A stretch of 64,000 nucleotides of DNA from Candidatus Levyibacteriota bacterium (GTDB taxonomy: Bacteria > Patescibacteriota > Microgenomatia > Levybacterales > UBA12049). The notes below the pieces were generated by a model that searched no databases, had not been told where the DNA came from, and worked only from the letters and a program-made list of their open reading frames with translations. A program made the position numbers and the translations under genes. Shown here piece after piece: positions 3,745 to 61,680 of this stretch. The DNA lies in the NCBI GenBank assembly GCA_038253825.1, contig JBBSGT010000003.1:463-64462 (forward strand), given 5' to 3'. Numbering within the stretch: the first letter of the stretch is position 1; every line of letters begins with the position of its first letter.

Positions 3745-3854
3745 CGATCTGAGCTATCGTAATGCATTTTACATAGCATGAGCTTACATAAAAAGTATCA
3801 GTTACTTTCTTCACTCCATTGCTGAGAAAGCAAACTTTTGAGTATAATAGTATT

Positions 3855-7131: not shown

Positions 7132-7847
7132 ATAAAAAATTATCTGAATTATCTATTTTCTTTCCGTTTTGGAATGAAGAAAAAAATATAGAAAACGTTG
7201 TGCAAAACGCAAAAGAAGTAGCAGAAAAAGTTGCTTCTCGATGGGAGATCATTATGGTTGATGATGGGTCAGTTGATAAAACTTTGCAGATAGCACAGAA
7301 ATTAACAAAGCAAGATAAGAGACTTCGTGTCGTGACGCATACGCCAAATAGAGGTTACGGAGCTGCATTAGCAGCTGGATTTTCAGTTGCACAATATAAA
7401 TATATCGTTTTTACTGATGGCGACATGCAATTTGATTTTGGTGAAGTTACAAAATTAATTGAAAAGATAGCAAACGCAGATATTGTTATCGGTTATCGAA
7501 AAAAAAGAAGGGATAAGAATCTAGGGAAACGCTTGTTATTAATGTATCTCTTAAAAGTTTGGGATTTAATTCTTTTCAGGTTTTACGTTAGAGACATTGA
7601 TTGTGCTTTTAAGATGTTTCGCAAAGAAGCAATTGAGCAAATTATTCCTTTACGTTCAGAAGGAGCCTTGGTCTCAACTGAGTTATTGGCCAAGGCAAAA
7701 AGAAAAAAGCTGAAAATAATTGAGGTTGGGGTAACACATTACCCAAGAAAATTGGGATATCAAAGCGGTGCAAATTTCCTGGTTATTCTTCGAGCTATTT
7801 TTGAAAGTTTTATATTATGGTGGGATTTAAAAAATGGAAGATTTTGA
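7128..7847 (+). CDS. GT2 family glycosyltransferase, DPM1-like polyprenyl-phosphate sugar synthase
   Basis: 'LSIFFPFWNEEKNI...IIMVDDGSVDKT...FTDGDMQ' GT2 DxD architecture, 239 aa. ATGA overlap with the upstream gene. Confidence 0.75.
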   Translation: MNKKLSELSIFFPFWNEEKNIENVVQNAKEVAEKVASRWEIIMVDDGSVDKTLQIAQKLTKQDKRLRVVTHTPNRGYGAALAAGFSVAQYKYIVFTDGDMQFDFGEVTKLIEKIANADIVIGYRKKRRDKNLGKRLLLMYLLKVWDLILFRFYVRDIDCAFKMFRKEAIEQIIPLRSEGALVSTELLAKAKRKKLKIIEVGVTHYPRKLGYQSGANFLVILRAIFESFILWWDLKNGRF

Positions 7848-9294
7848 TTTACAAGTAGTTGCTAAAAAATCAGTAACAGGAATATTTGCCCTCGTTTCCC
7901 GTTCATTCCTCGTGCAAATTTTGGCAGTTGTCAGTAACTTTGTTCTGACAATATATCTCGAACCTGCAATGTTCGGTATCTTTTTTGTCGTCAGTGCGAT
8001 CAACGTCTTTTTGGCATATTTTCAGGATATTGGCTTGGCTGCTCTTATTGTACAAAAGAAAGAAGAACCTTCAGTTGAGGAATTACGGACAACCTTTACG
8101 ATTCAGCAAATTTTAGTTTTTAGTATTGTCATCATTGGTTTTCTCCTCACTCCATTTATCACGCATCAGTTTCATTTAACAACTGAAGGTTTATATGTCT
8201 ATTACGCATATTTAATTTCTTTTATATTTTCCTCACTTAAAACTATCCCCACAGTTTTACTTGAAAGAAGACTTGATTTCCAAAAGCTTGTTGTACCCCA
8301 GATTGCCGAAGGACTTGTTTACAGTATTGCTCTTATTACTTTTGCACTCTTAGGTTTTGGTGTGAATACATTTACTATCGCAATTTTATTAAGAAGTATT
8401 GTGGGATTGCCATTAATTTATTATATACAGCCATGGAGTATTGGGTTTGCGTTTAAAAAATCACTCATCAAGCAACTTATTTCTCACGGATCTCCTTATC
8501 AAGGAAATAGTATCCTTGCACTTTTAAAAGATGATTTGGTAGATCTATATGTAGCATCTGTATTGCCACTTACACAGGTTGGATATATTGGGTTTGGACA
8601 AAAGTGGGGTTCTCTTCCTTTACGGCTTGTTATGGATAATGTTATTAAAGTCACATTCCCTTCCTACAGCCGCTTACAGCACAATAAAGAAGCATTAAAG
8701 ATAGTAGTTGAAAAGTCTCTCTTTTTAATCTCGTTTTTCATTTTCCCTATCGTTGTAGGATTTATTGTCTTTTCTCCTGATCTTATCAAATTTATCCCGC
8801 GATACGGGAAATGGGAAAATGCATTAGTTTCCTTAATGTATTTTTCTTTGGATACACTCTTTGCTTCGATAAGTGTGCCTTTAACAAACTTACTGAATGC
8901 TATCGGAAAAGTAAAAATTACGCTGAAATATATGGTATTTTGGACAATCTTAACGTGGGTCTTGACGATTCTGTTTATACGCTGGTTTGGTTATAATGGT
9001 GTCGCATTAGCGTCCTTTATTGTCTCTGCAAGTGTTCTTCTTATTCTTATTCCGGTTAAAAAAGAATTGCAGTTTTCGTTTGTCGGTCCCATATGGAAAC
9101 AATTTTTAGCAGCACTCATTATGGGAATTCTAGTCTACGCAAGCCGTGGTATGATTCATTCTCTCTTAGAATTGGGAATGATGATGATTATAGCAGGAAT
9201 CTTCTATCTAGCAATTCTTTTTGCAATATCAAAAAATGAGCTTATGAAGATATATGCATTTATTTCAGATATAATTAAAAAGGATAAAAAATGA
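7834..9294 (+). CDS. Wzx-like polysaccharide/oligosaccharide flippase (MOP superfamily)
   Basis: 486 aa with about 12-14 TM helices and an N-terminal pattern typical of 'polysaccharide biosynthesis protein' exporters. Confidence 0.6.
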   Translation: MEDFDLQVVAKKSVTGIFALVSRSFLVQILAVVSNFVLTIYLEPAMFGIFFVVSAINVFLAYFQDIGLAALIVQKKEEPSVEELRTTFTIQQILVFSIVIIGFLLTPFITHQFHLTTEGLYVYYAYLISFIFSSLKTIPTVLLERRLDFQKLVVPQIAEGLVYSIALITFALLGFGVNTFTIAILLRSIVGLPLIYYIQPWSIGFAFKKSLIKQLISHGSPYQGNSILALLKDDLVDLYVASVLPLTQVGYIGFGQKWGSLPLRLVMDNVIKVTFPSYSRLQHNKEALKIVVEKSLFLISFFIFPIVVGFIVFSPDLIKFIPRYGKWENALVSLMYFSLDTLFASISVPLTNLLNAIGKVKITLKYMVFWTILTWVLTILFIRWFGYNGVALASFIVSASVLLILIPVKKELQFSFVGPIWKQFLAALIMGILVYASRGMIHSLLELGMMMIIAGIFYLAILFAISKNELMKIYAFISDIIKKDKK

Positions 9295-38002: not shown

Positions 38003-38193
38003 TTAAAAATTTGAGTTTGTTCAATTCTTGCTGGAAAATGAGTACAGATTTAATTTTCGCGATGCAATTGAGAAAAATATAACCTATTTACTCATATCAT
38101 ATCGAAAAGATAGCATGTTGTATCTACATACGTAGTCAATATCCCAGATTTAAAAAACACTTTTTTCGATAAGATGCGATATAATAATTGATA

Positions 38194-39849: not shown

Positions 39850-40803
39850 ATGATTAGTGTTATTGTCCCTGCGTGCAATGAAGGTGAAGGAATTCAGGCA
39901 TTTTATGATGAAATGATGAAAGTCATGCCTGGGGTAGATAAAGACTACGAAATAATCTTCATTGACGATGGTTCTACTGATAATACTTTGGAAATTCTCA
40001 AATCTTTTGTTCACCAGAATCACCATATCCGAGTCTTTTCTTTCAAAAGAAATCGTGGCAAAGCGGATGCGCTCGCCTATGGCTTTTCGTGTGTGAAAGG
40101 TGATATTGTCATTACCATGGATGCAGATCTCCAAGATAAACCTACACAGATCGAAAAATTCATCGCCAAACATAATGAAGGTGCAGATGTCGTATGCGGA
40201 TGGAGAAAAAATCGAAAAGATAAATCAAAGATGGTTGTCATTTCCAAATTATTTAACTGGATTATCTGGAAATTGTTTGGTCTCCATCTCCATGACATTG
40301 ATTGTGGTTTTAAACTCTTTACCACAGAAGCTGCGAGGAGTCTCCACATTTATGGGGGACTTTACCGATTTATTCCGTTGCTACTTTATGAAAATGGTTA
40401 TGTCGTTGATGAGGTAGTTGTCGAACATGATGTACGAAAATTTGGACACTCCAAATATGGTTTTTCCAAAGTCTGGAAAAATTTGCCTGATCTTTTTACA
40501 ATGATATTTTTAGTAAAGTATAGTAAAAGACCTTTGCATTTTTTCGGTATTGTGGGAGGTTTATTAGTGCTCATTGGTTTGATCATCCTTCTGGACTTAT
40601 CCTATTTACATTTTACCGGACATACAATTTCTCGAAGACCAGCTTTGGTTTTGAGTATGTTATGTATAATTGCTGGTTTACAAACATTCTTTACCGGTTT
40701 TCTTGCAGATCTTATGATTAATATTTCCCATACCACTGGTTCTTCAAAGAATGAAGAGGCTCATTTTCCTCTCAAATATGCAAGCGATATGGTAAAAGCT
40801 TGA
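39850..40803 (+). CDS. GtrB/ArnC-type GT2 polyprenyl-phosphate glycosyltransferase with two C-terminal TM helices
   Basis: 'ISVIVPACNEGEGI...IIFIDDGSTDNT...TMDADLQDKP' plus C-terminal TM hairpins (FFGIVGGLLVLIGLIILL..., LVLSMLCIIAGLQTFFTGFLADL). Confidence 0.75.
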   Translation: MISVIVPACNEGEGIQAFYDEMMKVMPGVDKDYEIIFIDDGSTDNTLEILKSFVHQNHHIRVFSFKRNRGKADALAYGFSCVKGDIVITMDADLQDKPTQIEKFIAKHNEGADVVCGWRKNRKDKSKMVVISKLFNWIIWKLFGLHLHDIDCGFKLFTTEAARSLHIYGGLYRFIPLLLYENGYVVDEVVVEHDVRKFGHSKYGFSKVWKNLPDLFTMIFLVKYSKRPLHFFGIVGGLLVLIGLIILLDLSYLHFTGHTISRRPALVLSMLCIIAGLQTFFTGFLADLMINISHTTGSSKNEEAHFPLKYASDMVKA

Positions 40804-40839: not shown

Positions 40840-41373
40840 ATGAAAATCGGTATCGACATATCCCAACTTGCCTATGAAAGAACTGGTGTTGCGAACTATC
40901 TAAGGTGCCTTGTTGAGCATTTATTGGAAGTTGATACTGAAAATGAGTATATTCTCTTTTTCTCATCTATGAGAAATAATTTTCAATTTCCCAATGTCAA
41001 TTTTCAATCAAAGCCCAATGTTTCGATTAAACGATTTAAATTCCCTCCTACATTGCTGAATATCCTCTGGAATAAATTGCATGTTATGCCGATTGAAATA
41101 CTTATTGGTGATGTTGATGTCTTTATAACTTCAGATTGGACAGAACCACCAGTGAAGAAAGCGAAAAAGATGACTATTCTTTATGATCTGATTATCTATA
41201 AATGTCCACAAGAGACGGCAGCGCAGATTATTGCAACTCAAAAGAAAAAATTGGAATGGGTAAAGAAAGAATCTGCTATGATTTTATGTGTCTCAGAAGC
41301 GACGAAGCGAGATGCGGAAGATATTTTGGGAATTGAAAAAGATCGGCTAGCGGTTGTTTATCCGGGAGTGTAG
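40840..41373 (+). pseudogene. Truncated GT4 N-terminal-domain fragment (177 aa), paralogous to the full-length GT4 just downstream
   Basis: Begins like a GT4 (MKIGIDISQLAYERTGVANY), ends '...RLAVVYPGV*' at the inter-domain junction and lacks the whole Glycos_transf_1 domain. The next gene repeats the same architecture in full. Confidence 0.5.
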
Positions 41374-41426: not shown

Positions 41427-42563
41427 ATGATAATTGGAATTGATGGGAATGAAGCAAATGTGAGAAAACGAGTGGGCATTAGTGAATATGCTTATCAATT
41501 GTTGGTGCAGTTTGTGAGCGAAAAATATCGTGACCGCGGCCTCAAATTTGTTGTCTACTTAAAAGATGAACCGCTTGATCACATGCCGAAAACAAGTAAG
41601 AACTTTGCATATCGCATTGTTAAACCAGGCAAACTATGGACACAATGGCGTTTACCTCTTGATCTGTACTTTCATCGGCCTCGGCCTGATATCTTCTTTA
41701 GCATGACACACTATGCGCCTCGTTTTTCACCTGTGCCTACAGTAGTTTCAATAATGGACGTTGCATACGAGCATTTTCCGGAGCTTTTTAACCAAGCAGA
41801 TTTGTATCAGCTCAAAAATTGGACAAAATACTCAGTACATAATGCTAAACGAGTTTTGACAATTAGTGACTCAAGCAGAGATGATATAATAAAAATATAT
41901 GGTTCATCTCCGGAAAAGGTGAAGACGATTTATCCGGGAATAAAAGAGATTGCATCTCTTGAACCACATGTTTTTGGTATGAATCAGTTACAAGCAAAAT
42001 ACGATATCTCTGATAACTACGTCCTCTTTGTCGGCACGTTACAACCACGCAAAAATATTGCTCGTTTAATCGAAGCATTCGCGAAAGTTAGCCAAGAAAA
42101 ACTGCAAGATAAGCCATTAGACTTAGTAATCATTGGTCGAAAAGGATGGCTTTATGAAGAAATTTTGGCGGCACCGGAGAAGTTTGGTATTTCAGACCGT
42201 GTTAAATTTCTTGAGGGAATCCAAGATGATGAGCTTAATATTTTTTATAAACATGCGCTTTGCTATGTCCTTCCTAGTCTCTATGAAGGATTTGGTTTGC
42301 CCGTTATCGAAGCAATGCAACGTGGTTGTCCGGTTATTACAAGTAACGTTTCCAGTATGCCTGAGGCTGGTGGGGATGCTGCACTCTATGTAGATCCTAA
42401 AAATGTTGATGATATCGTGGAAAAGATTACGTTGCTCGTAACGGATAAGAAGATGAGAGAGGATTTGATTGAAAAAGGGAAAAAACAGGTGAAGAAATTT
42501 AGTTGGAAAAAAGCAGCCAAAGAAACGCTAGAGGTTTTACAAGAAGTCGGAGCTAAAAAATAA
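41427..42563 (+). CDS. GT4 family glycosyltransferase
   Basis: 'SLYEGFGLPVIEAMQRGCPVITSNVSSMPEAGGDAA'. Confidence 0.8.
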   Translation: MIIGIDGNEANVRKRVGISEYAYQLLVQFVSEKYRDRGLKFVVYLKDEPLDHMPKTSKNFAYRIVKPGKLWTQWRLPLDLYFHRPRPDIFFSMTHYAPRFSPVPTVVSIMDVAYEHFPELFNQADLYQLKNWTKYSVHNAKRVLTISDSSRDDIIKIYGSSPEKVKTIYPGIKEIASLEPHVFGMNQLQAKYDISDNYVLFVGTLQPRKNIARLIEAFAKVSQEKLQDKPLDLVIIGRKGWLYEEILAAPEKFGISDRVKFLEGIQDDELNIFYKHALCYVLPSLYEGFGLPVIEAMQRGCPVITSNVSSMPEAGGDAALYVDPKNVDDIVEKITLLVTDKKMREDLIEKGKKQVKKFSWKKAAKETLEVLQEVGAKK

Positions 42564-42576
42564 AAAGGTTAATGTT

Positions 42577-43170
42577 ATGAGAAATTTATTGAATGAGAAA
42601 ATGTCCAAAGAACAATTTATATCCAAAGGGAAAAATAGGGCAGGCACGGTGGGGCTGGAGTTGACTGTATTTCTTTTACATGTCATTGGTTGGTTTCCCT
42701 CGCATCATGTGAGACGCTTTTTTTATCGATTGACCGGAATGCATATTGGTGACGGATCAACTATTCATACCGGTGCAAGATTTTATAACCCTGGACAAAT
42801 TCGAATCGGCAATGATTCAATAATTGGTGAAGGTGTTGTATTGGATGGGCGCGCCTATCTGCGTATCGGTAATCATATAGATATAGCGTCAGAAGTGATG
42901 ATTTACAATTGCCAGCATGATATCCAGAGTGCAGATTTTCATGCAGTTTGTGAAGAAGTTGTGATTGACGATTATGTTTTTATTGGACCACGTGCAATTA
43001 TTTTGCCCGGAGTCACCTTAGGAAGAGGAGCAGTCGTAGCTGCAGGAGCAGTTGTGACAAAAAGTGTCGAACCGTTTGCAATTGTGGGTGGTGTTCCAGC
43101 CAAAGTAATCGGTGAACGGAAAAAAGAAGAACTGCATTATCAATTGGGAAGGGCTGCCTGGTTCAGATAA
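42577..43170 (+). CDS. Hexapeptide-repeat acetyltransferase (WcaF/CysE-like LbH)
   Basis: Hexapeptide repeats 'IGNDSIIGEGVVLDGRAYLRIGNHIDIAS...IGPRAIILPGVTLGRGAVVAAGAVV'. Confidence 0.7.
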   Translation: MRNLLNEKMSKEQFISKGKNRAGTVGLELTVFLLHVIGWFPSHHVRRFFYRLTGMHIGDGSTIHTGARFYNPGQIRIGNDSIIGEGVVLDGRAYLRIGNHIDIASEVMIYNCQHDIQSADFHAVCEEVVIDDYVFIGPRAIILPGVTLGRGAVVAAGAVVTKSVEPFAIVGGVPAKVIGERKKEELHYQLGRAAWFR

Positions 43171-43235: not shown

Positions 43236-44117
43236 ATGTTGCTTTCTATTATTCTCTTAAATTTTAATAAATCTCATTTAACAATTGCGTGTATGCAATC
43301 ATTGTATGAACACTTTAGGAATGAATTTAGCGATAATCTATTAGAAATTATTTTGGTAGATAATGCTTCAGGTGATGGATCGGTTCAGGAGTTAAAGAGT
43401 GCGATAAAACAGAACGACTACAAAAATTGTCTGTTAATCGAAAATAAGACCAATGATGGATTTAGTAAAGGTGTTAATAAAGGAGCTGAGGAGGCAAAAG
43501 GGGAATACTATCTCTTTTTAAACAACGACACGATTGTAAAAGATCGGGGAATTTGGGATATGATGCAGTATATGCAGTCTCACAGTGAAGTGTCGATTCT
43601 TGGAGGCAAACTGAGTAATGTAGATGGTTCGGACCAACCATCGGTTGGAAAGTTTTATATGCCGACACAAGTGACACTTCTTATGTTAGGTTTGCAAAAA
43701 TATGACATCATTGATAAAAATCCCGAAAAAATTGCAGAAGTGGATTGGGTTAAAGGGGGGTTACTAATGATCAGAAATGCCGTATTCAAAAAGCTGCATG
43801 GATTTGATGAAAAAATCTTTATGTATACAGAGGATATGGAATTATGTTATCGCGCCAAGCTAAACGGCTACAAAACCTTCTTTTATCCTTCTGTGCATGT
43901 TCTCCATGAAGAAACAGGAAGCTCAAATCGCGCTTTTGCCATTGTAAATATCTATGCAAATCTATTATACTTCTATAAGAAGCACCGCACGCACGGTGAG
44001 TATCTTTATTTACAATCGCTTCTGCGTATAAAAGCAGTTGCATTAATAGGAATTGGACGACTGCTCCGCAATTCCTACTTAGTCCAAACTTATGAAAAAG
44101 CTTTTAAAGTTACTTGA
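43236..44117 (+). CDS. GT2 family glycosyltransferase
   Basis: 'LSIILLNFNKSHLTIACMQSL...ILVDNASGDGS', 'NNDT', 'TEDMELCYRAKLNGY'. Confidence 0.75.
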   Translation: MLLSIILLNFNKSHLTIACMQSLYEHFRNEFSDNLLEIILVDNASGDGSVQELKSAIKQNDYKNCLLIENKTNDGFSKGVNKGAEEAKGEYYLFLNNDTIVKDRGIWDMMQYMQSHSEVSILGGKLSNVDGSDQPSVGKFYMPTQVTLLMLGLQKYDIIDKNPEKIAEVDWVKGGLLMIRNAVFKKLHGFDEKIFMYTEDMELCYRAKLNGYKTFFYPSVHVLHEETGSSNRAFAIVNIYANLLYFYKKHRTHGEYLYLQSLLRIKAVALIGIGRLLRNSYLVQTYEKAFKVT

Positions 44118-47100
44118 TGATAACTTGCTGCGATTTGGAGTAGCATTTGCTATTTTATTTACCGCGCTCTACCCAAAACTCCCAAGCGTCCATGTCCCAC
44201 ACACATGGGTGTATGTCAGATTGGAAGATTTTCTTATTTTATTCTTAGTATTTATTTGCTTAATCCAATTACTCAGAAGAAAAATCGCCTTGCCGAGACC
44301 CGAAGGATACGCGCTTGTGATCTATTGGATTGTCGGGGCGATTTCTCTTGTCTATTGTATAGCTTTCGTCATCCCTGGTTTACCTATTGAATTTTTCCCA
44401 AGTATAGCCTGGCTCGAGTTCTTGCGGAGAATAGAGTATATGATTTTGTTCTTCGTGGCATTTTCTACTGTCCGTAATCAAAGAGATGTGAGGTTTTATC
44501 TCACAACGCTTGCTATTACACTCTCTTTGATTATCTGTTACGGATTCGGACAGAAGTTCTATCCGCTAATTTGGAATTTCTTTCCAGAGTTTTTTAAACA
44601 TCACCAATTTTGTTTCCCGGCTTTCCTAACAGGAAATGAAGAGTTTGCAAAGGGGACGCCTTTATGTCTTGATTCGTTGTCACGTATTAGTTCTACCTTT
44701 GGGGGACATTATGATTTGGCAGCATATTTAGTTCTTGTTATACCTATTTTTATTGCGCTTTTTATTGTTGTCAGACGTTGGTATATCAAGATTCCATTTG
44801 CCATTCTTGTCGTTTTGGGACTAGAATTGCTTAATTTCACATCATCACGAACTTCTTTTGCAGCATATGTTTTGGGTGCTATCAGTATGTTGATTCTTTG
44901 GAAAAAGAAACTATGGATTATTCCTGTTTTGCTTGCTAGTATCGGTATTCTCTTTTTCCTAAGTAATGCTACCTTGCAGCGTTTCGCGAAGACGATTCAA
45001 CCGGTACAGGTTGTTCAAATACAACCGGGTTCTACCACTTCTGATCAGGATATTCAAAAGATTATAAGTACGACACAACAGAAAAATGCCAATAAAAAGC
45101 CTCAGACACCCGCCCCTGGTACTGTGACGATTGGAAATGACAGTAGTTTAGCAAGCGGCAGTAGTCAAGTTCTTACTGCTGAAGATTTAGCGTCATTACA
45201 GGCAAATGGCAGCATCTCAACTGTGTCCGGTTCATTCTTGTTGAAAAAAGCATATGCGCTTGATATTTCTTCTACTACGCGTTTTCAAGCAGAATGGCCA
45301 CGAGACTGGAATGCCTTCTTGTACAGTCCAGTTTTCGGAACAGGCTATTCTTCTTTAACGCTTGCATCCGATAATGATTATCTCCGCGCCTTGGGAGAAA
45401 CAGGGCTTGCAGGATTCCTAGCATTCCTTTTTATATTCGTAATATTTGGCATCTTTCTCAAAGAGGTTGCACATTCTGTTGAAGATCGAGTTACGCAAGC
45501 CTTCTTGTTTGGACTGGCTGGAGGCGTTATCGGTCTTTTAATTAATGCAGTATTGATTGATGTCTTTGAAGCCTCAAAAGTTGCGGAACCACTGTGGATT
45601 CTTTTGGGTATTGCTTTGGGAGCAGCGAAACTTTATCACAAAAAAGCAATTAATTATAAAAAAGAGCTTCTCATATTTTTAACCTCCAATACCTTGATTA
45701 TCATATATTTATTTGTTCTTGTATTTACCATTTTTGGTTCGTCAATCAATAACTTCTTCGTAGCTGATGACTATAGTTGGCTAAAATGGGCTGCAACGGC
45801 GGTACCGTCGGATCTTATGAAATACTTTGTATATTTGCCGGACTTTTTCTATCGACCTCTGGATAAAATCATTGTTTATTTCCTCTATACGATTTTCTCC
45901 TTCCTTCCACAGGGATACCACATTTTCATTTTGTTGCTTCACTTTGTGACAAGTGTTGGTGTCTTTTTCTTAGCTAAAAAAATATCGCGAAGTAAATTAA
46001 TCGGTACTCTGACAGCTGTCTTATTTGTACTCCTTCCTGCACATACGGAAAATGTATTTTGGTTCTCAACAATTTCTGTTGAGCTGGGGGCATTATTTAT
46101 TATCTTTATGATGCTTACTTACATTAAATTCAGAGAAAATAATTCAATAGTCGGCTATATCCTGGCAATTCTTTTTGCGGCACTTGCATTCGTCACTTAT
46201 GAAATTGCCGTAATCACCCCATTAATACTCATGACACTCGATATCTTTATTCTCAAACCAAAAAGAAATATTCGCATTGTATACTCCTACATTCCTTTTG
46301 TGATTTTACTCGTTTTATATTTCGTTATGCGATTTGTTTCGCATGCTTTTTCAGGTGGTGGCGACTACAGTTATCATCTCAGTCGATTTATCCCAAACAT
46401 GATCGGAAACTTCTTGGGCTATACAGGTATGTATCTTGGTGGACCATCCTTTTTGTCTTTCTATAATACAGTTCGTGATAGTTTACGCTCAGACTGGATT
46501 TTCGTTTCCTTTGTTATTCTTGTCATTATTGGATTACTCATGTGGGCTATCTATACATACCGAAGGTCAGCAAAGGCAATGATCCATAATAAGGATATAC
46601 ACATTATTTTATTTTGCATAGTCTTTGCATTTATTTCCTTATTGCCGTTCTTACCACTGGGTAATATTGCACCGAGGTATTTGTATTTAGCTTCTGCTGG
46701 ATACACATTGGCGTTGGTTTCTATTTTAAAATTACTCTTCATACATTGGTTAAAACAACCAAAATATGTGACGAGTTTGTTGATTGTTGTTACCATTGGT
46801 TTGTCGTTTATCTCTATTGTGAATTTGCGTCAAGAACAAAACAAGTGGGAAAATGCCGGTTACATAACGCAAAACACCCTCCTCTTTTTTAGAAAAAATT
46901 ACGCAGGTTTAGGACAAGAGACTAATCTCTATTTTGTTAATACACCTGTGCAGGAAAACGGTGTGTGGGTATTTCCTGTTGGGCTTAATGACGGGTTGTG
47001 GATTATTTATCGAGATAAATTACCCCATGTTGTACAAGTGAATTCTCTTGAGGATGCGATGACGGCTGCAAATAGTGGTAATACAGATAATAACTATATC

Positions 47101-47142
47101 TTTGATTTTGATAAAAATGGGAGTATTCAGCAGGTTAGGTAA
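44092..47142 (+). CDS. 1016-aa fusion membrane protein: N-terminal O-antigen ligase/polymerase-like (Wzy_C) domain plus C-terminal GT-C-like polytopic domain
   Basis: The N-terminal half has a TM bundle with 'LNFTSSRTSFAAYVLG' and 'YSPVFGTGYSSLTLASDNDYLRALGETGLAGFLAF', the characteristic O-antigen-ligase block. A low-complexity Thr/Ser/Gln linker follows at about aa 300-370. The C-terminal half (from about aa 540) is a second TM bundle with an 'ADDYSW' acidic loop. Confidence 0.55.
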   Translation: MKKLLKLLDDNLLRFGVAFAILFTALYPKLPSVHVPHTWVYVRLEDFLILFLVFICLIQLLRRKIALPRPEGYALVIYWIVGAISLVYCIAFVIPGLPIEFFPSIAWLEFLRRIEYMILFFVAFSTVRNQRDVRFYLTTLAITLSLIICYGFGQKFYPLIWNFFPEFFKHHQFCFPAFLTGNEEFAKGTPLCLDSLSRISSTFGGHYDLAAYLVLVIPIFIALFIVVRRWYIKIPFAILVVLGLELLNFTSSRTSFAAYVLGAISMLILWKKKLWIIPVLLASIGILFFLSNATLQRFAKTIQPVQVVQIQPGSTTSDQDIQKIISTTQQKNANKKPQTPAPGTVTIGNDSSLASGSSQVLTAEDLASLQANGSISTVSGSFLLKKAYALDISSTTRFQAEWPRDWNAFLYSPVFGTGYSSLTLASDNDYLRALGETGLAGFLAFLFIFVIFGIFLKEVAHSVEDRVTQAFLFGLAGGVIGLLINAVLIDVFEASKVAEPLWILLGIALGAAKLYHKKAINYKKELLIFLTSNTLIIIYLFVLVFTIFGSSINNFFVADDYSWLKWAATAVPSDLMKYFVYLPDFFYRPLDKIIVYFLYTIFSFLPQGYHIFILLLHFVTSVGVFFLAKKISRSKLIGTLTAVLFVLLPAHTENVFWFSTISVELGALFIIFMMLTYIKFRENNSIVGYILAILFAALAFVTYEIAVITPLILMTLDIFILKPKRNIRIVYSYIPFVILLVLYFVMRFVSHAFSGGGDYSYHLSRFIPNMIGNFLGYTGMYLGGPSFLSFYNTVRDSLRSDWIFVSFVILVIIGLLMWAIYTYRRSAKAMIHNKDIHIILFCIVFAFISLLPFLPLGNIAPRYLYLASAGYTLALVSILKLLFIHWLKQPKYVTSLLIVVTIGLSFISIVNLRQEQNKWENAGYITQNTLLFFRKNYAGLGQETNLYFVNTPVQENGVWVFPVGLNDGLWIIYRDKLPHVVQVNSLEDAMTAANSGNTDNNYIFDFDKNGSIQQVR

Positions 47143-47166: not shown

Positions 47167-48660
47167 ATGCATGAGTTTATAAAAAAAGTAGCGAAATACA
47201 AACTACTCTTTCAAATCGCAATTATAGCTTTGTTTTTTGTTGGTGGTGCTGCACTTCGCTTTCATGCCTTCAATAATCCGATTGCTGATTGGCATAGTTG
47301 GCGGCAAGCAGATACAGCAGCAGTTACCCGTAATTTCGTGAAAGACGGGTTTAATCCACTTTTTCCCCAGTTTGATTCATTCCATGCCCTCAACGATGCG
47401 CAACTTCCTGATCCAAACCGATATTTCTTTGCAGAATTCCCAATATATAACATCATTACCTATTATGGCTATACGATTTTTGGTCATTTTACTATTGAAG
47501 AGTGGGGAAGACTCGTCAGCATTTTCTTTTCTTCTCTTGGAATAGTTTTTCTTTATCTTTTGGTCAAACAGTACTCTTCCGAAAAAGTTGCATTGGTTGC
47601 AGCATTTGTCTTTGCGTTTCTTCCATATAACGTCTATTACGGGAGAGTTACCATGCCTGATCCGATGCATATTACATTTTCAATTCTTTCTCTTTATCTC
47701 ATAACGCTTTGGATAAGGACAAGTAAATGGTGGTGGGCAATTCTTGCAGGCGCTGCTTATGCCATTACGATTTTGACAAAACCATATGGCTTAGTCCTTC
47801 TTTTGCCCATTGCTTATCTTATGCTACGAAAATGGAAACATCGGCTTTTCCTTCGTCCAGAATTGTATCTTTTTGCAATTATTGGTTTCGTACCTTATCT
47901 CTTATGGAAACATCATATAGATATGTATCCGCAAGGTCAGTTTGGTACAGCATGGCTTTTTAATCAAGGCAATATTCGTTTCACCGGTGCCTACTTCCAC
48001 TGGCTCATTTACGATCGTATGAATCGGCTCATCTTTGCCACGGGAGGCTTTGTACTTTTTTGGCTGGGTATTATCAAAGGCAATAATGAACGCGAGGGAT
48101 TATTCTATTATAGTTGGTTGGCTGCTGTCCTTATCTTTTTTGTCGTGATCGCCAAAGGGAATGTGACACATGATTATTATCAGATGCCAATCGTTCCTAT
48201 TGGTGCAATCCTCATCGGTAAAGGAATTGAATTTCTCCTCGAGTACGGACTGCGTTGGTATCATCGCGTGATCAATGTTGGTGTGGCGCTTGCCTTGCTT
48301 TTATTGATGTTGGCGTTTGGGTGGTTTGAAGTGCGTGGTTATTACAACATCAATCATCCCGAGATAGTAGAGGCAGGTCAAGCAGTAGATAAAATGTTGC
48401 CAAAAGATGCGAAAGTCATTGCACCATATGATAATGATTCGTCATTTTTATATCTGACTAACCGCCACGGATGGCCGATCGGTGGGACAGATATCCCGAA
48501 ATGGATTCATGATGGTGCACAATACCTCGTTTCAGTTAACTACGATGATACGACTAACTATTGGCTAAAAAAATGCTCAGTTGTCACAAAAAATCCAAAA
48601 TTTGTTATTATTAATTTAACAAAATGCAAAGGTCCAATTGAAAATCCACCACAAAAATGA
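47167..48660 (+). CDS. PMT_2/ArnT-like (GT-C) membrane glycosyltransferase
   Basis: 497 aa. First-loop 'DWHSWRQADTAAVTRNF', more than 10 TM helices, C-terminal soluble domain. Confidence 0.5.
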   Translation: MHEFIKKVAKYKLLFQIAIIALFFVGGAALRFHAFNNPIADWHSWRQADTAAVTRNFVKDGFNPLFPQFDSFHALNDAQLPDPNRYFFAEFPIYNIITYYGYTIFGHFTIEEWGRLVSIFFSSLGIVFLYLLVKQYSSEKVALVAAFVFAFLPYNVYYGRVTMPDPMHITFSILSLYLITLWIRTSKWWWAILAGAAYAITILTKPYGLVLLLPIAYLMLRKWKHRLFLRPELYLFAIIGFVPYLLWKHHIDMYPQGQFGTAWLFNQGNIRFTGAYFHWLIYDRMNRLIFATGGFVLFWLGIIKGNNEREGLFYYSWLAAVLIFFVVIAKGNVTHDYYQMPIVPIGAILIGKGIEFLLEYGLRWYHRVINVGVALALLLLMLAFGWFEVRGYYNINHPEIVEAGQAVDKMLPKDAKVIAPYDNDSSFLYLTNRHGWPIGGTDIPKWIHDGAQYLVSVNYDDTTNYWLKKCSVVTKNPKFVIINLTKCKGPIENPPQK

Positions 48661-49598
48661 AAAAGCTTATTACGATTGGTAACATTTATCTAGATAATAA
48701 TATCTTCAAGGTTGATACCGGAGGACAAAAAGCTCTTACTGTAGGCAAAGAATATTTTGCAGAAAAAAGTGAAAAAGTGCTAGGAGGATCAGCGGTAAAT
48801 TTTGCGATGCAAGCTCAAAACCTAGGATTATCGACAGCTTTTTTAGGAAGAGTTGGCGATGATGAGGAAGGGCAGGAAATAAAAAATTTGTTACAAGAAA
48901 AGCATATCAGTGCTGATTTAGTCACAACAGCTCCCGAAGATCAAACAAGTATTGCCTTTAATGTCGTACTTACCGATGGAGAGTTTGTAAGTTTTCATTG
49001 GGGCAATGCAAGTCGCCATTTAGATGCAGACCAGATAGACCTAGCCCATCCTCTTTTTAATCAAACAGATGCAGTCTATTTCGGTGGAACTGCAAAACAA
49101 GAAAAAGTGTTAGACAAATTTCCTATACTTTTCCATGAACTCCATAAAAAAGGGATAAAAATCATTATTGACCCCAATCGTTTTCCTGTCAATGAACAGA
49201 ATATAAAAAGAGAAATGCTGTTAGAGTCATTTCAATATGTTGATTGTTATTTGCCCAATGAGGAGGAAATAAAACAAGTTGCGCAAGAGGAAAACTTGGA
49301 CACAGCACTAGAGAAAGTAATCAATAAAGGCACGAAATTAATTGTCGTAAAGATGGGTGCGAAAGGCTGTCGAATAAAATCAAGCACTGAAGATATAATC
49401 ATCCCAGGGTTTACTGTTATACCCATAACAACAGTAGGGGCTGGAGACACGTTCAATGCTGGATTCGTTTCCCAATATTTAGTTAGTAAATCGCTTGAGG
49501 AATGTGCTCGATTTGCCAATGCATGTGCTGCAATCAAAGTAAGTGAAAATAAATTTGCTGAGTTACCTGAAGTAGAAAAGTTTTTAGTAACTCATTAA
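48657..49598 (+). CDS. PfkB-family carbohydrate kinase (ribokinase-like)
   Basis: 'GGSAVNFAMQAQNLG' and C-terminal 'TVGAGDTFNAGFV' anion-hole motif. Confidence 0.75.
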   Translation: MKKLITIGNIYLDNNIFKVDTGGQKALTVGKEYFAEKSEKVLGGSAVNFAMQAQNLGLSTAFLGRVGDDEEGQEIKNLLQEKHISADLVTTAPEDQTSIAFNVVLTDGEFVSFHWGNASRHLDADQIDLAHPLFNQTDAVYFGGTAKQEKVLDKFPILFHELHKKGIKIIIDPNRFPVNEQNIKREMLLESFQYVDCYLPNEEEIKQVAQEENLDTALEKVINKGTKLIVVKMGAKGCRIKSSTEDIIIPGFTVIPITTVGAGDTFNAGFVSQYLVSKSLEECARFANACAAIKVSENKFAELPEVEKFLVTH

Positions 49599-59923: not shown

Positions 59924-61009
59924 ATGAATATTGTTTTATTTGCAGGTGGTGTTGGCAGCAGGTTGTGGCCACTTTCCCGAAAGAATGCTCCAAAACAGTT
60001 TGGCAAAATCATCGCTGACCGCTCGATGCTCCAAATTGCTGTCCATAAATTATTCCCGGAATTTAAATGGGAAGATGTTTTTATCTCAACCGGAAATCAG
60101 TACGCCACACATATCACCGATCAATTGCCATTACTTCCTGAAAAAAATATTATCGTTGAGCCTGAAATGAGGGATGTCGGTCCTGCAGTAGGTTTGGTAA
60201 TCGCGCAATTTGTCAAAACAAATCCTGACGAACCAATTGTACTTTTGTGGGGAAGTGATCATCTGGTTAAAAAAGAAGCAATTTTTCGAAAGATGCTCCG
60301 AGCAGCTGAAAAGCTGATTCTAGAAAATCCAAATAAAATTGTTTTTATTGGTCAGAAACCACGGTTTGCAAATCAGAATTTAGGTTATATTGCCTACGGC
60401 AAGGAAGTCGCAAACGTTGGCGGTTTTTCCGTTAATGAATTTACTCATTTTAAATATCGGCCAGATATGGAGACAGCAAAAGAGTATGCGCAAGATGGCA
60501 AACATGCCTGGAATTTAGGATACTTCGCAACCACACCACGTTTCTTATGGAAATTGTTTGAAGAATTTTCTCCTGAAATGTACAAAAAATTAAAGAAAAT
60601 TCATGATGCATATGGAACTGCTGAATATGAAGCTGTTCTTGGGGAAGTATATCCTACGCTCGAAAAAATTTCTTTTGACGATGCAATTCTTGAGAAGATG
60701 GATCCTAATGATGGTCAAGTTATTTCAGCTGATATTGGTTGGAGTGATATTGGAGCATGGGAAGCTTTGAAGGAAGCCTTGAGTGACAAAGTTGAAGAAA
60801 ACGTAACAAAAGGAAAAATTTTACTAGAAGGCTGCAGTGATTCAATTTTACACAACGAAACAAAACAATTAATTGTGGGTATTGACCTGCATGAAATGGT
60901 TATTGTCAGTATGGAGGATGTTATCTTAGTATGTCCAAAGGATTCGGTACCAAAAATCAAAACATTAGTAAAAAGTCTCGATGGTACTTCTTACGAACAT
61001 TTAGTGTAA
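59924..61009 (+). CDS. manC: Mannose-1-phosphate guanylyltransferase (GDP-mannose pyrophosphorylase), nucleotidyltransferase domain only
   Basis: 'MNIVLFAGGVGSRLWPLSRKNAPKQF' is the characteristic ManC/CpsB N-terminus. 361 aa without a PMI domain. Confidence 0.8.
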   Translation: MNIVLFAGGVGSRLWPLSRKNAPKQFGKIIADRSMLQIAVHKLFPEFKWEDVFISTGNQYATHITDQLPLLPEKNIIVEPEMRDVGPAVGLVIAQFVKTNPDEPIVLLWGSDHLVKKEAIFRKMLRAAEKLILENPNKIVFIGQKPRFANQNLGYIAYGKEVANVGGFSVNEFTHFKYRPDMETAKEYAQDGKHAWNLGYFATTPRFLWKLFEEFSPEMYKKLKKIHDAYGTAEYEAVLGEVYPTLEKISFDDAILEKMDPNDGQVISADIGWSDIGAWEALKEALSDKVEENVTKGKILLEGCSDSILHNETKQLIVGIDLHEMVIVSMEDVILVCPKDSVPKIKTLVKSLDGTSYEHLV

Positions 61010-61011
61010 AC

Positions 61012-61680
61012 ATGGCTTACACACAGATCCATAAAAGTTTAACTTTTTCCGTAACAAAGCGATTAATCGATATTGTATCTTCTTCAGTTCTTCTTATTCT
61101 GTTTTCACCAATTATCTTTGTTGTTGTTATGGCAATCAAACTTGATTCAGTCGGGCCTATTTTAGCTGATACCCCAAAGCGAGTAGGGGAAAAAAATAAA
61201 TACTTTTATCCGTATAAATTCCGTTCAATGATTGTTAATGCGTATTATCTATTAAAAACAGATCCCAAATTTAAAGCGGCATATGAAGAACAGCAAAAAG
61301 GCGGTAATTATAAAGTCAAGAATGATCCGCGAATTACACGCGTCGGAAAGTTTATTCGGAAGTATTCACTTGATGAAATCCCTCAGCTTGTAAATGTCTT
61401 CAAAGGAGAAATGAGTCTCGTGGGACCTCGACCGTATTATCCAGAAGAACTAGAAAAACAACAACAACACTACCCCCAAACGAAAGATCTTGTGCAGGAA
61501 GTGCTTTCCGTAAAGCCAGGGATTACTGGGTATTGGCAGGTCAGTGGAAGAAGTGAAGTGAAGTTCGATAAACGAATTCAAATGGATGCTGATTACGCTA
61601 TGAAAAATTCAATCACGCTGGATATCTTAATCATTTTAAGGACTCCTTGGGCTATGATATCAGGAAAAGGAGCATTGTAA
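61012..61680 (+). CDS. Monotopic initiating phosphoglycosyltransferase (bacterial sugar transferase, PglC/WbaP C-terminal-domain type)
   Basis: Single N-terminal re-entrant helix 'LIDIVSSSVLLILFSPIIFVVVMAIKLDS' with 'PYKFRSM' and 'DEIPQLVNVFKGEMSLVGPRP' motifs. ATG at 61012, directly after the manC stop. Confidence 0.8.
   Translation: MAYTQIHKSLTFSVTKRLIDIVSSSVLLILFSPIIFVVVMAIKLDSVGPILADTPKRVGEKNKYFYPYKFRSMIVNAYYLLKTDPKFKAAYEEQQKGGNYKVKNDPRITRVGKFIRKYSLDEIPQLVNVFKGEMSLVGPRPYYPEELEKQQQHYPQTKDLVQEVLSVKPGITGYWQVSGRSEVKFDKRIQMDADYAMKNSITLDILIILRTPWAMISGKGAL

Follow-up and report, generated by a model that had tools for sequence, protein, structure and literature searches.

Closest described systems

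The CAZy clan GT-C1 comprises the SEDS proteins (GT119), the O-antigen ligases (GT121) and several BP-Pol families (PMC10920833). In the ligases, two arginines bind Und-PP and a histidine activates the acceptor; the Wzy-type polymerases and SEDS proteins of this clan have Asp or Glu instead of the histidine (PMC10920833). Brucella WadA is a bimodular O-antigen ligase that consists of a GT25 and a GT121 module (PMC9938171), and it was the only experimentally described precedent for a Wzy_C–glycosyltransferase fusion found in our literature search. Three-component extracytoplasmic glycosylation systems combine a GtrB-like GT2, a flippase and a GT-C enzyme, with GtrABx, ArnC/ArnT, CsbB/GtcA/YfhO, GacI/GacL and PgfS/PgfM as examples (PMC8035078, PMC11127046, PMC12041528).

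A Wzy_C–GT-C fusion gene in Levyibacteriota

The window, i.e., the whole stretch of 64,000 nt analysed here, contains one long gene in which a Wzy_C-type module precedes a GT-C module.

44092..47142, + strand: fusion ORF, 1016 aa plus stop (open frame, intact relatives)

It is conserved throughout Levyibacteriota, a phylum of ultra-small bacteria without cultured members. None of its 1016 codons is a stop, and it shares its first 26 nt with the end of the GT2 gene upstream. NCBI holds an identical 1016-aa protein from a Candidatus Levyibacteriota MAG (P0001) and labels the family "O-antigen ligase family protein". At least 79 species genomes encode full-length relatives with 33–64% identity, and 118 of the 120 best database matches are at least 1000 aa long. 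Among 79 species-representative genomes, 75 ORFs reach at least 977 aa; shorter ones are probably due to contig ends. As the intact single frame recurs in relatives, a hidden stop, a frameshift or a misassembly in the window gene is excluded, and the single two-domain polypeptide of the original prediction is confirmed. The motifs it quoted are all present, namely SSRTSFAAY (residues 251–259), FGTGYSS (415–421), DNDYLRALGETGLAGF (427–442) and ADDYSW (558–563). The full-length AlphaFold model has a pTM of 0.79, with 136 disordered residues, which suggests that the two modules pack in a defined manner. Our literature search found no paper describing a fusion of Wzy_C-type and GT-C modules, in line with the earlier view that this machinery had not been characterised.

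The N-terminal module

44092..45630, + strand: N-module, residues 1–513, Wzy_C superfamily, 12 predicted TM helices, putative Und-PP-glycan transferase type (AF2 helices, positive-inside loop charges, Pfam)
44806..45429, + strand: Pfam Wzy_C (PF04932) match, residues 239–446, HMM positions 2–149
44608..44727, + strand: family-specific outer loop, residues 173–212 (FCFPAFLTGNEEFAKG..C..R..STFGGHYDLAAY), defined by conservation
44980..45279, + strand: variable disordered outer loop with Ser/Thr/Gln-rich stretch, residues 297–396 (pLDDT <50)
44848..44850, + strand: Arg253 codon, counterpart of E. coli WaaL R215 and C. metallidurans WaaL (CmWaaL) R191, which bind the phosphate of Und-PP
45280..45282, + strand: Arg397 codon, counterpart of E. 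coli WaaL R288 and CmWaaL R265
45370..45372, + strand: Asp427 codon, site of the ligase catalytic His (E. coli WaaL H338, CmWaaL H313)

The N-terminal half matches Pfam Wzy_C, as its signature block had suggested, with 33.6 bits (gathering score 31.7, E 4e-8) and in the HMM register of E. coli WaaL 205–354; PF04932 is precomputed for 97 of the 120 listed homologues. The score exceeds the Pfam threshold by only 2 bits. Like Wzy-type polymerases, the module passes this threshold, is polytopic with 12 predicted TM helices, the last three of which follow a large outer loop, and carries two conserved arginines at Und-PP-binding positions. Unlike them, it has a variable insertion of about 100 residues in the big loop, the Cys-containing loop 173–212 and a covalently joined second glycosyltransferase. 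Loop 173–212 is highly conserved and includes two invariant cysteines, with pLDDT below 50 for residues 174–191; its R198 pairs with the invariant WaaL R161 in an hhalign alignment of low probability.

With WaaL (E. coli b3622; C. metallidurans 7TPG) the module shares the Pfam family, the 12 TM helices, the NCBI name and the register of the TxxR and R...W/Y...SP motifs. In contrast, profile, hhalign (3.6% probability) and Foldseek comparisons gave no significant similarity to genuine WaaL, 7TPG was not among the top 50 Foldseek matches of the full-length model, and the N-half profile had no PDB sequence match; these searches linked the N-half to no solved Wzy_C-type structure. R253, R397 and D427 are each conserved in 80 of 80 sequences of the fusion-family alignment. 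The equivalence of Arg397 was read off the register R..(W/Y)......F..SP in the fusion and WaaL sequences, where E. coli R288 equals CmWaaL R265, and that of Asp427 rests on the motif alignment together with the Wzy_C HMM coordinates. At the latter site the fusion protein reads DND where ligases read HND; an acidic residue also occupies this position in Wzy-type polymerases and SEDS. To judge from the sequence, R253, R397 and D427 probably form a polymerase-type rather than a ligase-type active site. Of the "ligase or polymerase" activity proposed earlier, the Wzy_C-superfamily assignment thus stands, whereas the ligase label is disfavoured by the invariant Asp in place of the ligase His and by the lack of significant similarity to WaaL. 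Given such a triad, the module would most likely polymerise repeat units or serve a non-LPS acceptor. Patescibacteria are generally regarded as lacking both lipid A and an outer membrane.

The Ser/Thr/Gln low-complexity stretch (residues ~300–385, between SSRTS and FGTGYSS) had been taken for the interdomain linker, which was a misplacement: it belongs to the Wzy_C module, where it is inserted into the big loop on the outer side between TM9 and TM10, and three further N-module helices come after it. Across homologues, the loop corresponding to residues 302–378 is 71–148 aa long and has an S+T fraction of 0.10–0.26 (0.26 in the window protein). The modules are instead joined further downstream.

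45631..45687, + strand: true interdomain linker, residues 514–532 (LYHKKAINYKKELLIFLTS) (AF2 model, loop charges)

This linker is short, Lys-rich and predicted to be cytoplasmic, carries a short helix and is the exact site of an ORF break in two contigs. The positive-inside pattern and the AF2 helices agree on a predicted order of 12 TM helices, cytoplasmic linker and GT-C module.

The C-terminal module

45688..46899, + strand: membrane part of the C-module, residues 533–936, about 11 TM helices, GT-C_A fold, ArnT/PMT/STT3-like, remote PMT_2 relative (AF2, Foldseek, hhalign)
46900..47139, + strand: C-terminal extracytoplasmic alpha/beta domain, ~80 aa (DSSP strands and helices, conservation)
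45766..45771, + strand: Asp559-Asp560 codons (ADDYSW), two acids that open external loop 1 and may be catalytic or bind metal

The C-module (residues 533–1016) has no Pfam match when searched alone. Its AF2 model (pLDDT 92.7, pTM 0.92) places it in the GT-C fold, as the proposed likeness to ArnT and PMT enzymes implied: the 27 PDB structures ranked highest by Foldseek all have this fold (probability 0.98–1.00), and 26 of them are glycosyltransferases (STT3, ArnT, PglB, AglB, PMT, DPY19), the sole exception being a GPI-transamidase subunit at rank 26. STT3 subunits, PglB and AglB scored best (E 7e-6 to 3e-3), with ArnT, PMT and DPY19 in the same range. Since oligosaccharyltransferases head this list above ArnT and PMT, the donor of the C-half may possibly be PP-linked. 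ArnT (GT83; 5f15, 5ezm) and Pmt4 (PMT, GT39; 9i5k) were matched with probability 1.0, but identity to solved structures is 9–16% at a TM-score of about 0.45–0.5, and in place of the periplasmic domain of ArnT or the MIR domain of PMT the protein ends in its small 80-aa domain, which contains the conserved segment WVFPVGL.DGLWFIYRD.

The connection to PMT_2 (PF13231) is remote. A profile of the C-half and its stand-alone relatives aligned to the neighbouring GT-C over its PMT_2 region (hhalign 76%, E 2e-5), whereas the narrow C-half family profile stayed below 10% against the GT-C paralogues of the window. One stand-alone relative (P0220) lies above the PMT_2 threshold and provides a transitive link; PF13231 is precomputed for 4 of the 120 listed homologues of the fusion protein. 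The C-half itself falls below the threshold of every Pfam GT-C family. Of the Pfam domains named in the original prediction, Wzy_C was recovered, and PMT_2 and PglL_A had no match in the fusion protein. With 88 representatives at E<=1e-30, the C-half constitutes a GT-C subfamily of its own.

The "ADDYSW" loop was correctly singled out. D559 and D560 directly follow the first TM helix of the C-module; D560 is invariant and D559 at least 90% conserved in the homologue alignment, 78–79 of 80 fusion-family sequences have these residues, and at least 90% of the stand-alone relatives retain them. The remaining conserved polar residues of the C-half (R588, H610, E653, E704, D758, R862) all lie at predicted outer-face positions. 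Stand-alone relatives, such as the one at L082, lack a fused Wzy_C domain, and coupling of the modules is thus not obligatory.

The conserved operon

39850..40803, + strand: full-length GT2 polyprenyl-phosphate-sugar synthase, GtrB/ArnC/PgfS/AglJ-like by sequence matches, directly upstream of the operon in 37/80 loci
40840-41373, + strand: 177-aa ORF, N-half of a GT4, syntenic in 60/80 loci
41427-42563, + strand: 378-aa GT4, syntenic in 73/80 loci
42577..43170, + strand: WcaF-like hexapeptide sugar O-acetyltransferase, 70/80 loci
43236..44117, + strand: GT2 immediately upstream of the fusion, 63/80 loci
47167..48660, + strand: second, separate GT-C with PMT_2/PMT match, immediately downstream of the fusion, 75/80 loci
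49620-50897, + strand: GT4, 64/80 loci
50956-51876, + strand: GT2, 59/80 loci
7834..9294, + strand: Wzx/MOP-type flippase candidate for an Und-PP-glycan (Polysacc_synt_3, E 2e-40)
60931..61680, + strand: initiating phosphoglycosyl transferase (Bac_transf, E 6e-60)

The order GtrB-like GT2, GT4 N-half, GT4, acetyltransferase, GT2, fusion, PMT_2, GT4, GT2 is kept in most of the 80 loci. The phosphoglycosyl transferase and the Wzx candidate lie 14–36 kb from the fusion gene, outside this operon. As in three-component systems, the C-half has a GT-C_A fold with acidic residues opening external loop 1, and the operon carries a GtrB/ArnC/PgfS-like synthase with two C-terminal hydrophobic or TM segments. 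This synthase likely makes the donor for the GT-C module, which fits the earlier idea of a lipid-linked monosaccharide, and the product of the neighbouring PMT_2 gene could alternatively be the real user. Differences from the three-component systems are the joined Wzy_C module, the Pfam scores of the C-half and the flippase: among the ORFs scanned, we found neither a GtrA-like one nor a chain-length regulator.

Proposed function and alternatives

The best reading is a bimodular enzyme of the outer face of the membrane that would combine a glycan polymerase or ligase with a side-chain or priming glycosyltransferase. In its specific form, to which we give a probability of about 0.55, it would be an integral-membrane glycan-assembly enzyme whose polymerase-type Wzy_C module and PMT_2/ArnT-like GT-C module have outward active sites and are coupled 1:1. 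The comparisons above demonstrate the intact ORF, the identity of domains and fold, the conservation of residues and the synteny; from them we infer topology, order of steps and the activity of both modules, and we infer donors and acceptors from the behaviour of the families. The even number of TM helices in the N-module and the short cytoplasmic linker would turn both active sites outward, and two outward sites in one polypeptide would couple both steps 1:1 on the same glycan.

Cytoplasmic GT4 and GT2 enzymes, together with the acetyltransferase of the operon, would build an Und-PP-linked unit. Module 1 would accept this undecaprenyl-diphosphate-linked oligosaccharide on the outer face and most likely polymerise it, or pass the glycan to a non-LPS acceptor. 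The polyprenyl-monophosphate-sugar made by the GtrB/ArnC-like GT2 (39850-40803) would be flipped outward and spent by module 2 for the addition of a single sugar, with Asp559/Asp560 as possible catalytic or metal-binding acids. Coupling may then either decorate the growing polymer with side chains, or let module 2 make the sugar that accepts the glycan from module 1. Taken together, the data support the overall interpretation of the original prediction and suggest that both modules work jointly on one cell-surface glycan. Two different predicted sugar-transferring enzymes, each dependent on a lipid carrier, are united in one protein.

Brucella WadA likewise ties a Wzy_C-type membrane module covalently to a second glycosyltransferase of the same pathway. 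Its partner, however, is a soluble cytoplasmic N-terminal GT25 of the GT-A type that uses a nucleotide-sugar donor, and WadA has the ligase His that the fusion protein lacks. The partner in the fusion is a C-terminal 11-TM GT-C, probably with a lipid-linked donor and an outward-facing site, so that, unlike in WadA, both sites would lie on the same outer side.

Transferred to the outer face, the logic of WadA leads to a possible but clearly less probable alternative: the GT-C module adds an acceptor sugar to the cell wall, to a membrane glycolipid or to a protein such as an S-layer protein or pilin, and the Wzy_C module, as ligase or O-oligosaccharyltransferase, then ligates the finished Und-PP-glycan en bloc onto this sugar without polymerisation. 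In WadA, a proven bimodular ligase, the ligation site is made by the fused glycosyltransferase (PMC9938171, PMC10920833), ligase-type GT121 proteins were reported from Gram-positive bacteria (PMC10920833), and the NCBI family name points the same way. Proteins are substrates of PMT-type GT-Cs, and the operon GT2 scores best with PgfS, part of a protein-glycosylation system. Against ligation stand the Asp, invariant as in polymerases and SEDS, at the place of the His proposed to activate the acceptor, the lack of a PglL_A match and the insignificant similarity to WaaL in profile and structure. Two Wzy-sized polytopic ORFs of the window without Pfam match (989-2203, 18610-19863) could serve as separate polymerases, but they belong to other sub-clusters and their adjacency to the fusion is not conserved.

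It is unlikely that the C-half, rather than transferring monosaccharides, acts like STT3 or PglB and moves the Und-PP polymer of the N-half en bloc to its final acceptor. The fusion would then hand the polymer straight from polymerase to transferase, and STT3 subunits, PglB and AglB do top the Foldseek list of the C-half. Yet users of monophosphate donors (ArnT, PMT, DPY19) score comparably, the C-half lacks both a WWDYG-type motif and a large C-terminal periplasmic domain (~80 aa only), its profile likeness is to PMT_2, and the conserved operon encodes a polyprenyl-P-sugar synthase.

Also unlikely is a catalytically dead module that serves as membrane scaffold or substrate-binding partner, e.g., a pseudo-GT-C holding the acceptor. 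Such a role could be read from the missing direct Pfam match of the C-half, from an N-half scarcely above the Wzy_C threshold and without the ligase His, and from the active GT-C (PMT_2) encoded next door. However, the expected catalytic residues are the most conserved ones of each module over 33–100% identity (R253, R397 and D427; D559/D560; also E653, E704 and D758), and stand-alone C-half relatives retain the same acids.

An assembly or sequencing error that merged two adjacent genes is highly improbable and was rejected for the window gene, whose intact frame recurs in the independent and identical NCBI record, in 118/120 best matches and in 75/79 species genomes. On two metagenome contigs (L083, L086) the halves are separate overlapping ORFs broken in the A-rich linker; these breaks fall in homopolymer A runs and may therefore themselves be frameshifts. 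A third apparent split, in L087, comes from a TAG that stands in frame at the codon of the conserved Glu493.

A fused Wzy_C and GT-C protein

The protein under study is encoded by a single uninterrupted ORF:

44092-47142 (+), 1016 codons from ATG to stop, fusion of a Wzy_C-type N-module (residues 1-513) and a GT-C-type C-module (residues 533-1016)

It contains zero internal stops, and the upstream GT2 gene runs 26 nt into its 5' end. All motifs quoted in the original prediction were recovered in this one frame and polypeptide (SSRTSFAAY at residues 251-259, FGTGYSS at 415-421, DNDYLRALGETGLAGF at 427-442 and ADDYSW at 558-563). The best-supported reading, to which we assign a probability of about 55%, is that a polymerase or transferase module acting on undecaprenyl-diphosphate (Und-PP)-linked units is joined to a GT-C module using a polyprenyl-phosphate sugar, both at the outer face of the membrane. 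The ORF, the fold and family assignments, the conservation and the synteny were established here.

The N-terminal module

Pfam Wzy_C (PF04932) matched residues 239-446 over HMM positions 2-149, i.e., the whole HMM, with 33.6 bits and an E-value of 4e-8, a small margin over the gathering score of 31.7. The predicted family assignment of this half was thereby borne out, and a precomputed PF04932 match is present in 97 of the 120 best among 1622 homologues. In the AlphaFold model of the full-length protein (pLDDT 78.5, pTM 0.79), 12 transmembrane (TM) helices are predicted in residues 2-513, and a 148-residue loop (291-438) separates helices 9 and 10. Basic residues are concentrated in the short loops 62-70, 127-129, 227-229, 270-272 and 514-532; by this positive-inside pattern, the N terminus and the end of the N-module are predicted to be cytoplasmic and the long conserved loops to face outward. 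The predicted layout is that of the WaaL/Wzy architecture, with a long outer loop ahead of the last three helices.

The Ser/Thr/Gln-rich segment, described originally as a linker between the two domains, turned out to lie elsewhere: residues ~300-385 are located within the big outer loop of the N-module, with pLDDT below 50. Among homologues this segment varies in sequence and in length (71-148 aa), and its Ser+Thr fraction has a median of 0.17 vs 0.12 for the whole protein, the window sequence being the maximum at 0.26. It is a lineage-variable insertion. Ser/Thr-rich intrinsically disordered regions are O-glycosylation targets in streptococci (PMC12041528); a similar, conserved role of this loop is improbable, as neither its Ser+Thr enrichment nor its length or sequence is conserved. 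The true linker comprises residues 514-532 (LYHKKAINYKKELLIFLTS); it is Lys-rich and predicted to be cytoplasmic.

Residues 205-354 of E. coli WaaL (Ec) correspond to Wzy_C HMM positions 6-146, in the same register as the fusion. Pairwise, HMM-coordinate and profile alignments, together with an alignment of Ec to C. metallidurans WaaL (Cm; 7TPG), equate R253 with EcR215 and CmR191, R397 with EcR288 and CmR265, and D427 with EcH338 and CmH313 (DNDYL in the fusion vs HNEII and HNDIV in the ligases). Each of the three residues is conserved in 80 out of 80 fusion sequences. In the Wzy_C superfamily two conserved Arg bind the Und-PP diphosphate, it is suggested that the conserved ligase His activates the acceptor, and, within the same CAZy clan (GT-C1), SEDS and the Wzy-type polymerase (BP-Pol) families carry Asp or Glu in place of the His, in the polymerases together with one or two conserved Arg (PMC10920833). 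Because the fusion shares the Asp at this position with those polymerases, its invariant D427 and R253/R397 point to a triad of polymerase rather than ligase type. Of the "ligase or polymerase" activity first proposed, membership in the superfamily stood, and the ligase option lost its His (H-N-x motif), which is Asp427 in 80/80 sequences.

Further comparisons with ligases gave little. In hhalign, the family profile reached 3.6% against a profile of 26 WaaL sequences and 0.9% against E. coli WaaL alone, both not significant though collinear. The lack of a PglL_A match in Pfam at E<=1 and the replacement of His by Asp argue against a PglL/PilO-type O-oligosaccharyltransferase. Among known fused Wzy_C enzymes, the nearest case is WadA of Brucella, which combines GT25 with GT121 and which its authors called, in 2023, the first bifunctional O-antigen ligase (PMC9938171; PMC10920833). 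A WadA-like enzyme, priming the acceptor with one module and ligating with the other, is the strongest rival, about which we are doubtful. Such a fusion has this precedent; however, the partner domain of WadA is soluble and cytoplasmic and its ligase His is kept, whereas here the partner is a membrane GT-C and the His is an Asp. A Pfam scan found no GT25 or other GT-A domain in the fusion. O-antigen ligases proper use lipid A-core as acceptor, and Patescibacteria are not known to have LPS.

The most conserved stretch of the whole protein is residues 173-212 (window 44608-44727), with the pattern FCFPAFLTGNEEFAKG..C..R..STFGGHYDLAAY and two invariant Cys. It lies on the predicted outer face, and residues 174-191 have an AlphaFold pLDDT below 50. 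WaaL has no counterpart to it, except for a possible equivalence of R198 with EcR161. The stretch may be an acceptor-binding or a disulfide-stabilised lid.

The C-terminal module

Searched alone, the C-half (residues 521-1016) matched no Pfam or NCBIfam family at E<=10; this includes PMT_2 (PF13231), the gathering score of which was not reached. PDB sequence searches with the C-half, the full-length profile and a broadened C-half profile yielded no meaningful match either. We modelled the C-half structure with 67 homologues (pLDDT 92.7, pTM 0.92) and compared it with the PDB using Foldseek. The top 27 hits were all membrane proteins of the GT-C fold, 26 of them glycosyltransferases: STT3 (human, yeast and canine oligosaccharyltransferase), ArnT (5f15, 5ezm), PglB, AglB, Pmt4, Pmt1-2 and DPY19; the exception, at rank 26, was a GPI transamidase subunit (8imx_U). 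The hits had probabilities of 0.98-1.00, E-values down to 7e-6 and identities of 9-16%, and TM-scores were 0.43-0.52 for full-length alignments and 0.31-0.35 for the partial PMT matches. These hits support a GT-C_A fold, in agreement with the "second GT-C-like domain" of ArnT/PMT type that had been proposed.

The module has ~11 TM helices in the AlphaFold model. The first (533-553) is followed by an external loop (EL1) opening with D559-D560, immediately ahead of the EL1 helix 560-569. Among the fusions D560 never varies and D559 is conserved to at least 90%; stand-alone relatives retain each of the two at 90% or more. The acidic "ADDYSW" loop that had been noticed thus consists of near-invariant acids at the start of EL1 after TM1, where the GT-C_A enzymes ArnT, PMT and PglB have their catalytic or metal-binding acids. 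Further conserved polar residues (R588, H610, E653, E704, D758 and R862) are all at predicted outer-face positions, and an alpha/beta domain of ~80 aa, predicted to be outside, closes the C terminus.

The relationship to PMT_2 became apparent only through relatives. [quoted passage not shown] One stand-alone relative (P0220) passes the PMT_2 threshold (39.8 vs 26.1), one has a weak match to GtrII, and among the 120 best of the 1622 fusion homologues 4 carry a precomputed PF13231 and 2 a PF10131 annotation. In hhalign, the GT-C gene next to the fusion could be aligned over its PMT_2 region with a broadened profile (A3) built from the C-half and 27 stand-alone relatives (76% probability, E 2e-5). 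With BLASTP and with the narrow family profile in hhalign, similarity to the GT-C paralogues of the window remained below 10% probability and was not significant, with consistent positions. The PMT_2 family proposed for this half thus failed as a direct match and held as a remote one: the PMT_2 match of P0220, the A3 alignment and the PF13231 homologues indicate that the C-half is a divergent subfamily of PMT_2/ArnT-like GT-C enzymes that family models do not yet cover.

That the C-half instead transfers glycans en bloc, as an oligosaccharyltransferase (OST)-like partner of a polymerase, is unlikely. STT3, PglB and AglB are among its structural hits, but these enzymes have a large C-terminal extracytoplasmic domain and a WWDYG-type motif, whereas the C-half has its ~80-aa domain and no WWD. 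By analogy with three-component extracytoplasmic glycosylation systems, the C-half would take the part of their GT-C enzyme. Still less likely is that one of the two modules is dead. In favour of it, the ligase His is missing from the N-module and the C-half matches no family directly; against it, R253, R397 and D427 are invariant and the EL1 acids nearly so.

Integrity and recurrence of the fusion

An identical 1016-aa protein, named "O-antigen ligase family protein", exists at NCBI in a Candidatus Levyibacteriota MAG (P0001). A homologue search with the fusion gave 1622 matches, of which the best 120 show 44-100% identity at 99-100% query coverage, 118 of them with at least 1000 aa. In a scan of one genome per GTDB species, relatives were found in 255 genomes, and almost all of the 80 best loci code for a full-length protein, with identities of 33-64%. 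Of the ORFs re-extracted from them, 75 out of 79 are in a single frame of at least 977 aa; the four shorter ones are probably cut by contig ends. The survey suggested with the original prediction thus found the fusion to recur far beyond chance, and the case in which its halves prove to be two separate genes did not arise in the window. Given the open frame, the identical NCBI record and this recurrence, a hidden stop, frameshift or misassembly is ruled out in the window, and an artefact is by far the least probable explanation.

The C-half also exists independently. One locus (L082) encodes a stand-alone relative with 42% identity between a GT2 and a GT4 gene, with no Wzy_C nearby, and another (L084) encodes a 1061-aa fusion homologue together with a stand-alone paralogue two genes downstream. 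In L083 (6001-6020) and L086 (2982-2992), the Wzy_C and GT-C ORFs are separate within the same operon, with overlaps of 20 and 11 nt, and the breaks fall exactly in the linker, within A-rich runs of the Lys-rich region. Since real splits and frameshifts look alike in A-runs, we rejected these two loci as split-gene evidence for coupling. In L087, an in-frame TAG replaces the conserved Glu493 codon (2991-2993; DVF*ASK), so that gene callers give a 474-aa Wzy_C protein and a 534-aa "stand-alone" GT-C; we rejected this locus as a split gene as well, and the TAG represents a pseudogene, a sequencing error or possibly read-through. Linker-located breaks and stand-alone forms make the domain boundary at ~515-530 well supported, which is not the case for split genes.

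The family appears to be confined to Patescibacteria, mainly Levyibacteriota/Microgenomates, as every fusion locus has a GC content of 28-47%, including records labelled Gammaproteobacteria, Acidiferrales and others. The fusion and its operon are present in many public MAG records labelled "uncultured Gammaproteobacteria", Acidiferrales, Sulfotelmatobacter, Methylomirabilota, Lysobacterales or Limnocylindrales (among them the loci L001, L002, L005, L008, L011, L025 and L065). These loci show Levyibacteriota-type synteny, two of them being contigs or chromosomes of 1.3-1.6 Mb, and the taxonomy labels are probably wrong.

Operon context and proposed activity

The fusion is embedded in an operon with the order GtrB-like GT2, 177-aa GT4 N-half ORF, GT4, WcaF-like acetyltransferase, GT2, fusion, PMT_2 GT-C, GT4 and GT2. 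In most of the 80 loci the genes follow the same order: individual genes were found in 59-75 of them and the GtrB-like GT2 in 37, many loci being cut by contig ends.

Features of the operon and two genes outside it
39850-40803, polyprenyl-phosphate-sugar synthase GT2, matching PgfS, ArnC and AglJ over nearly the full length
40840-41373, 177-aa ORF, matching only the N-terminal (Glyco_transf_4) half of the GT4 fold
48657-49598, PfkB-family carbohydrate kinase between the PMT_2 and GT4 genes, absent from 80/80 related loci
7834-9294, Wzx-type flippase (Polysacc_synt_3), 35 kb from the fusion, outside the conserved operon
60931-61680, phosphoglycosyl transferase (Bac_transf), 14 kb from the fusion, outside the conserved operon

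The first GT2 bears two C-terminal hydrophobic segments and matches PgfS (E 5e-42), ArnC (2e-40) and AglJ (3e-25), all below the equivalog cut-offs. Judged from these matches, it is a likely GtrB/ArnC-class synthase alongside a GT-C protein, the combination seen in three-component systems. No GtrA-type flippase was detected among the scanned window ORFs (>=96 aa). An initiating phosphoglycosyl transferase and a Wzx flippase, the usual companions of a Wzy-type polymerase, are both encoded in the window, but at a distance from the fusion. In 60 of the 80 loci, the 177-aa ORF stands on its own immediately ahead of a complete GT4, and its product may be a split or heteromeric glycosyltransferase subunit. 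The PfkB kinase is a window-specific insertion into the otherwise conserved operon.

For the preferred reading, a polymerase or transferase joined to a polyprenyl-phosphate-sugar GT-C, we infer substrates, order of steps and coupling as follows. In the cytoplasm, the operon's GT4 and GT2 enzymes would, with its acetyltransferase, assemble an oligosaccharide on Und-PP. After flipping, R253 and R397 would hold the diphosphate and D427 would activate the acceptor hydroxyl, so that the N-module polymerises or transfers the Und-PP-linked unit. The GtrB-like GT2 would make a polyprenyl-phosphate sugar, from which the C-module, with D559 and D560 as its catalytic acids, would add one sugar on the outer face, either as a side branch on the polymer or as acceptor sugar for the N-module. 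The even number of predicted TM helices in the N-module and the short cytoplasmic linker would put both sites on the same side of the membrane with 1:1 stoichiometry.

How Wzy-type polymerases and ligases are coordinated with outside GT-C decorators of the same glycan is poorly understood, and in model bacteria each is a membrane protein of its own, of low abundance. A covalent fusion occurring in nature serves as a "Rosetta stone" arguing for their physical coupling; this one is conserved at 33-100% identity over a whole CPR lineage, within a conserved nine-gene operon. No concept is overturned: pathway enzymes are often fused, and WadA already provides one bimodular Wzy_C enzyme. Our literature search yielded nothing on a fusion of Wzy_C with GT-C or on glycosylation in Levyibacteriota. 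Only tentatively do we suggest that two lipid-carrier-dependent glycosyltransferases of different classes, an Und-PP-glycan enzyme (WaaL/Wzy/SEDS type) and an Und-P-sugar enzyme (ArnT/PMT type), are here for the first time seen joined in a single protein whose two sites both face outward. This might be an obligate "decorate-while-polymerising" or "prime-then-ligate" machine for the main surface glycopolymer or glycoconjugate of Levyibacteriota, with the Asp-type Wzy_C as a new functional class (a new CAZy family) and the C-half as a new GT-C family.

Hundreds of copies are stored in databases as "O-antigen ligase family protein", most of those listed without a GT-C annotation on the C-terminal half. 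Our results correct this name, which hides an unannotated GT-C domain of 480 residues and a missing ligase His. Being one well-behaved protein that lends itself to structure determination and to reconstitution in vitro, this conserved, tractable and uncharacterised bimodular enzyme could show how polymerisation or ligation couples to GT-C decoration, and it points to the core surface-glycan pathway of organisms not yet culturable.

The surrounding glycan island

Nearly the whole window (1-64000) is devoted to glycan biosynthesis, with ~20 GT2/GT4 ORFs and at least six GT-C-type membrane proteins, the fusion C-half included.

Further features of the window
2263-3744, 3819-5420, 14065-15675 and 47167-48660, PMT_2 proteins
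5404-7131, PTPS_related protein
16576-17556, 25346-26272, 26323-27498 and 59924-61009, sugar-nucleotide enzymes
53749-55047 (-), ferric-reductase-like membrane flavoprotein, a non-GT gene in the island
55144-57015, 623-aa protein with a type I dockerin domain, a non-GT gene in the island
61753-63759, single-pass DUF4012 protein of 668 aa, a non-GT gene in the island, adjoining the phosphoglycosyl transferase gene on its downstream side

Six polytopic membrane ORFs with 8-13 hydrophobic segments each (989-2203, 18610-19863, 30182-31828, 32460-34769, 35769-37793 and 38188-39741) gave no Pfam or NCBIfam match. Two of them, 989-2203 and 18610-19863, correspond in size and number of TM segments to Wzy-type polymerases or flippases; hhalign found no similarity to the N-half, and we rejected them as its relatives. 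A third, 35769-37793, recurs upstream of the fusion in 30 of the 80 loci and gives a faint hint of the GT-C protein AftD (E 0.42). Several short GT2 genes (7128-7847, 13333-14049) adjoin GT-C genes and may encode further polyprenyl-phosphate-sugar synthases.
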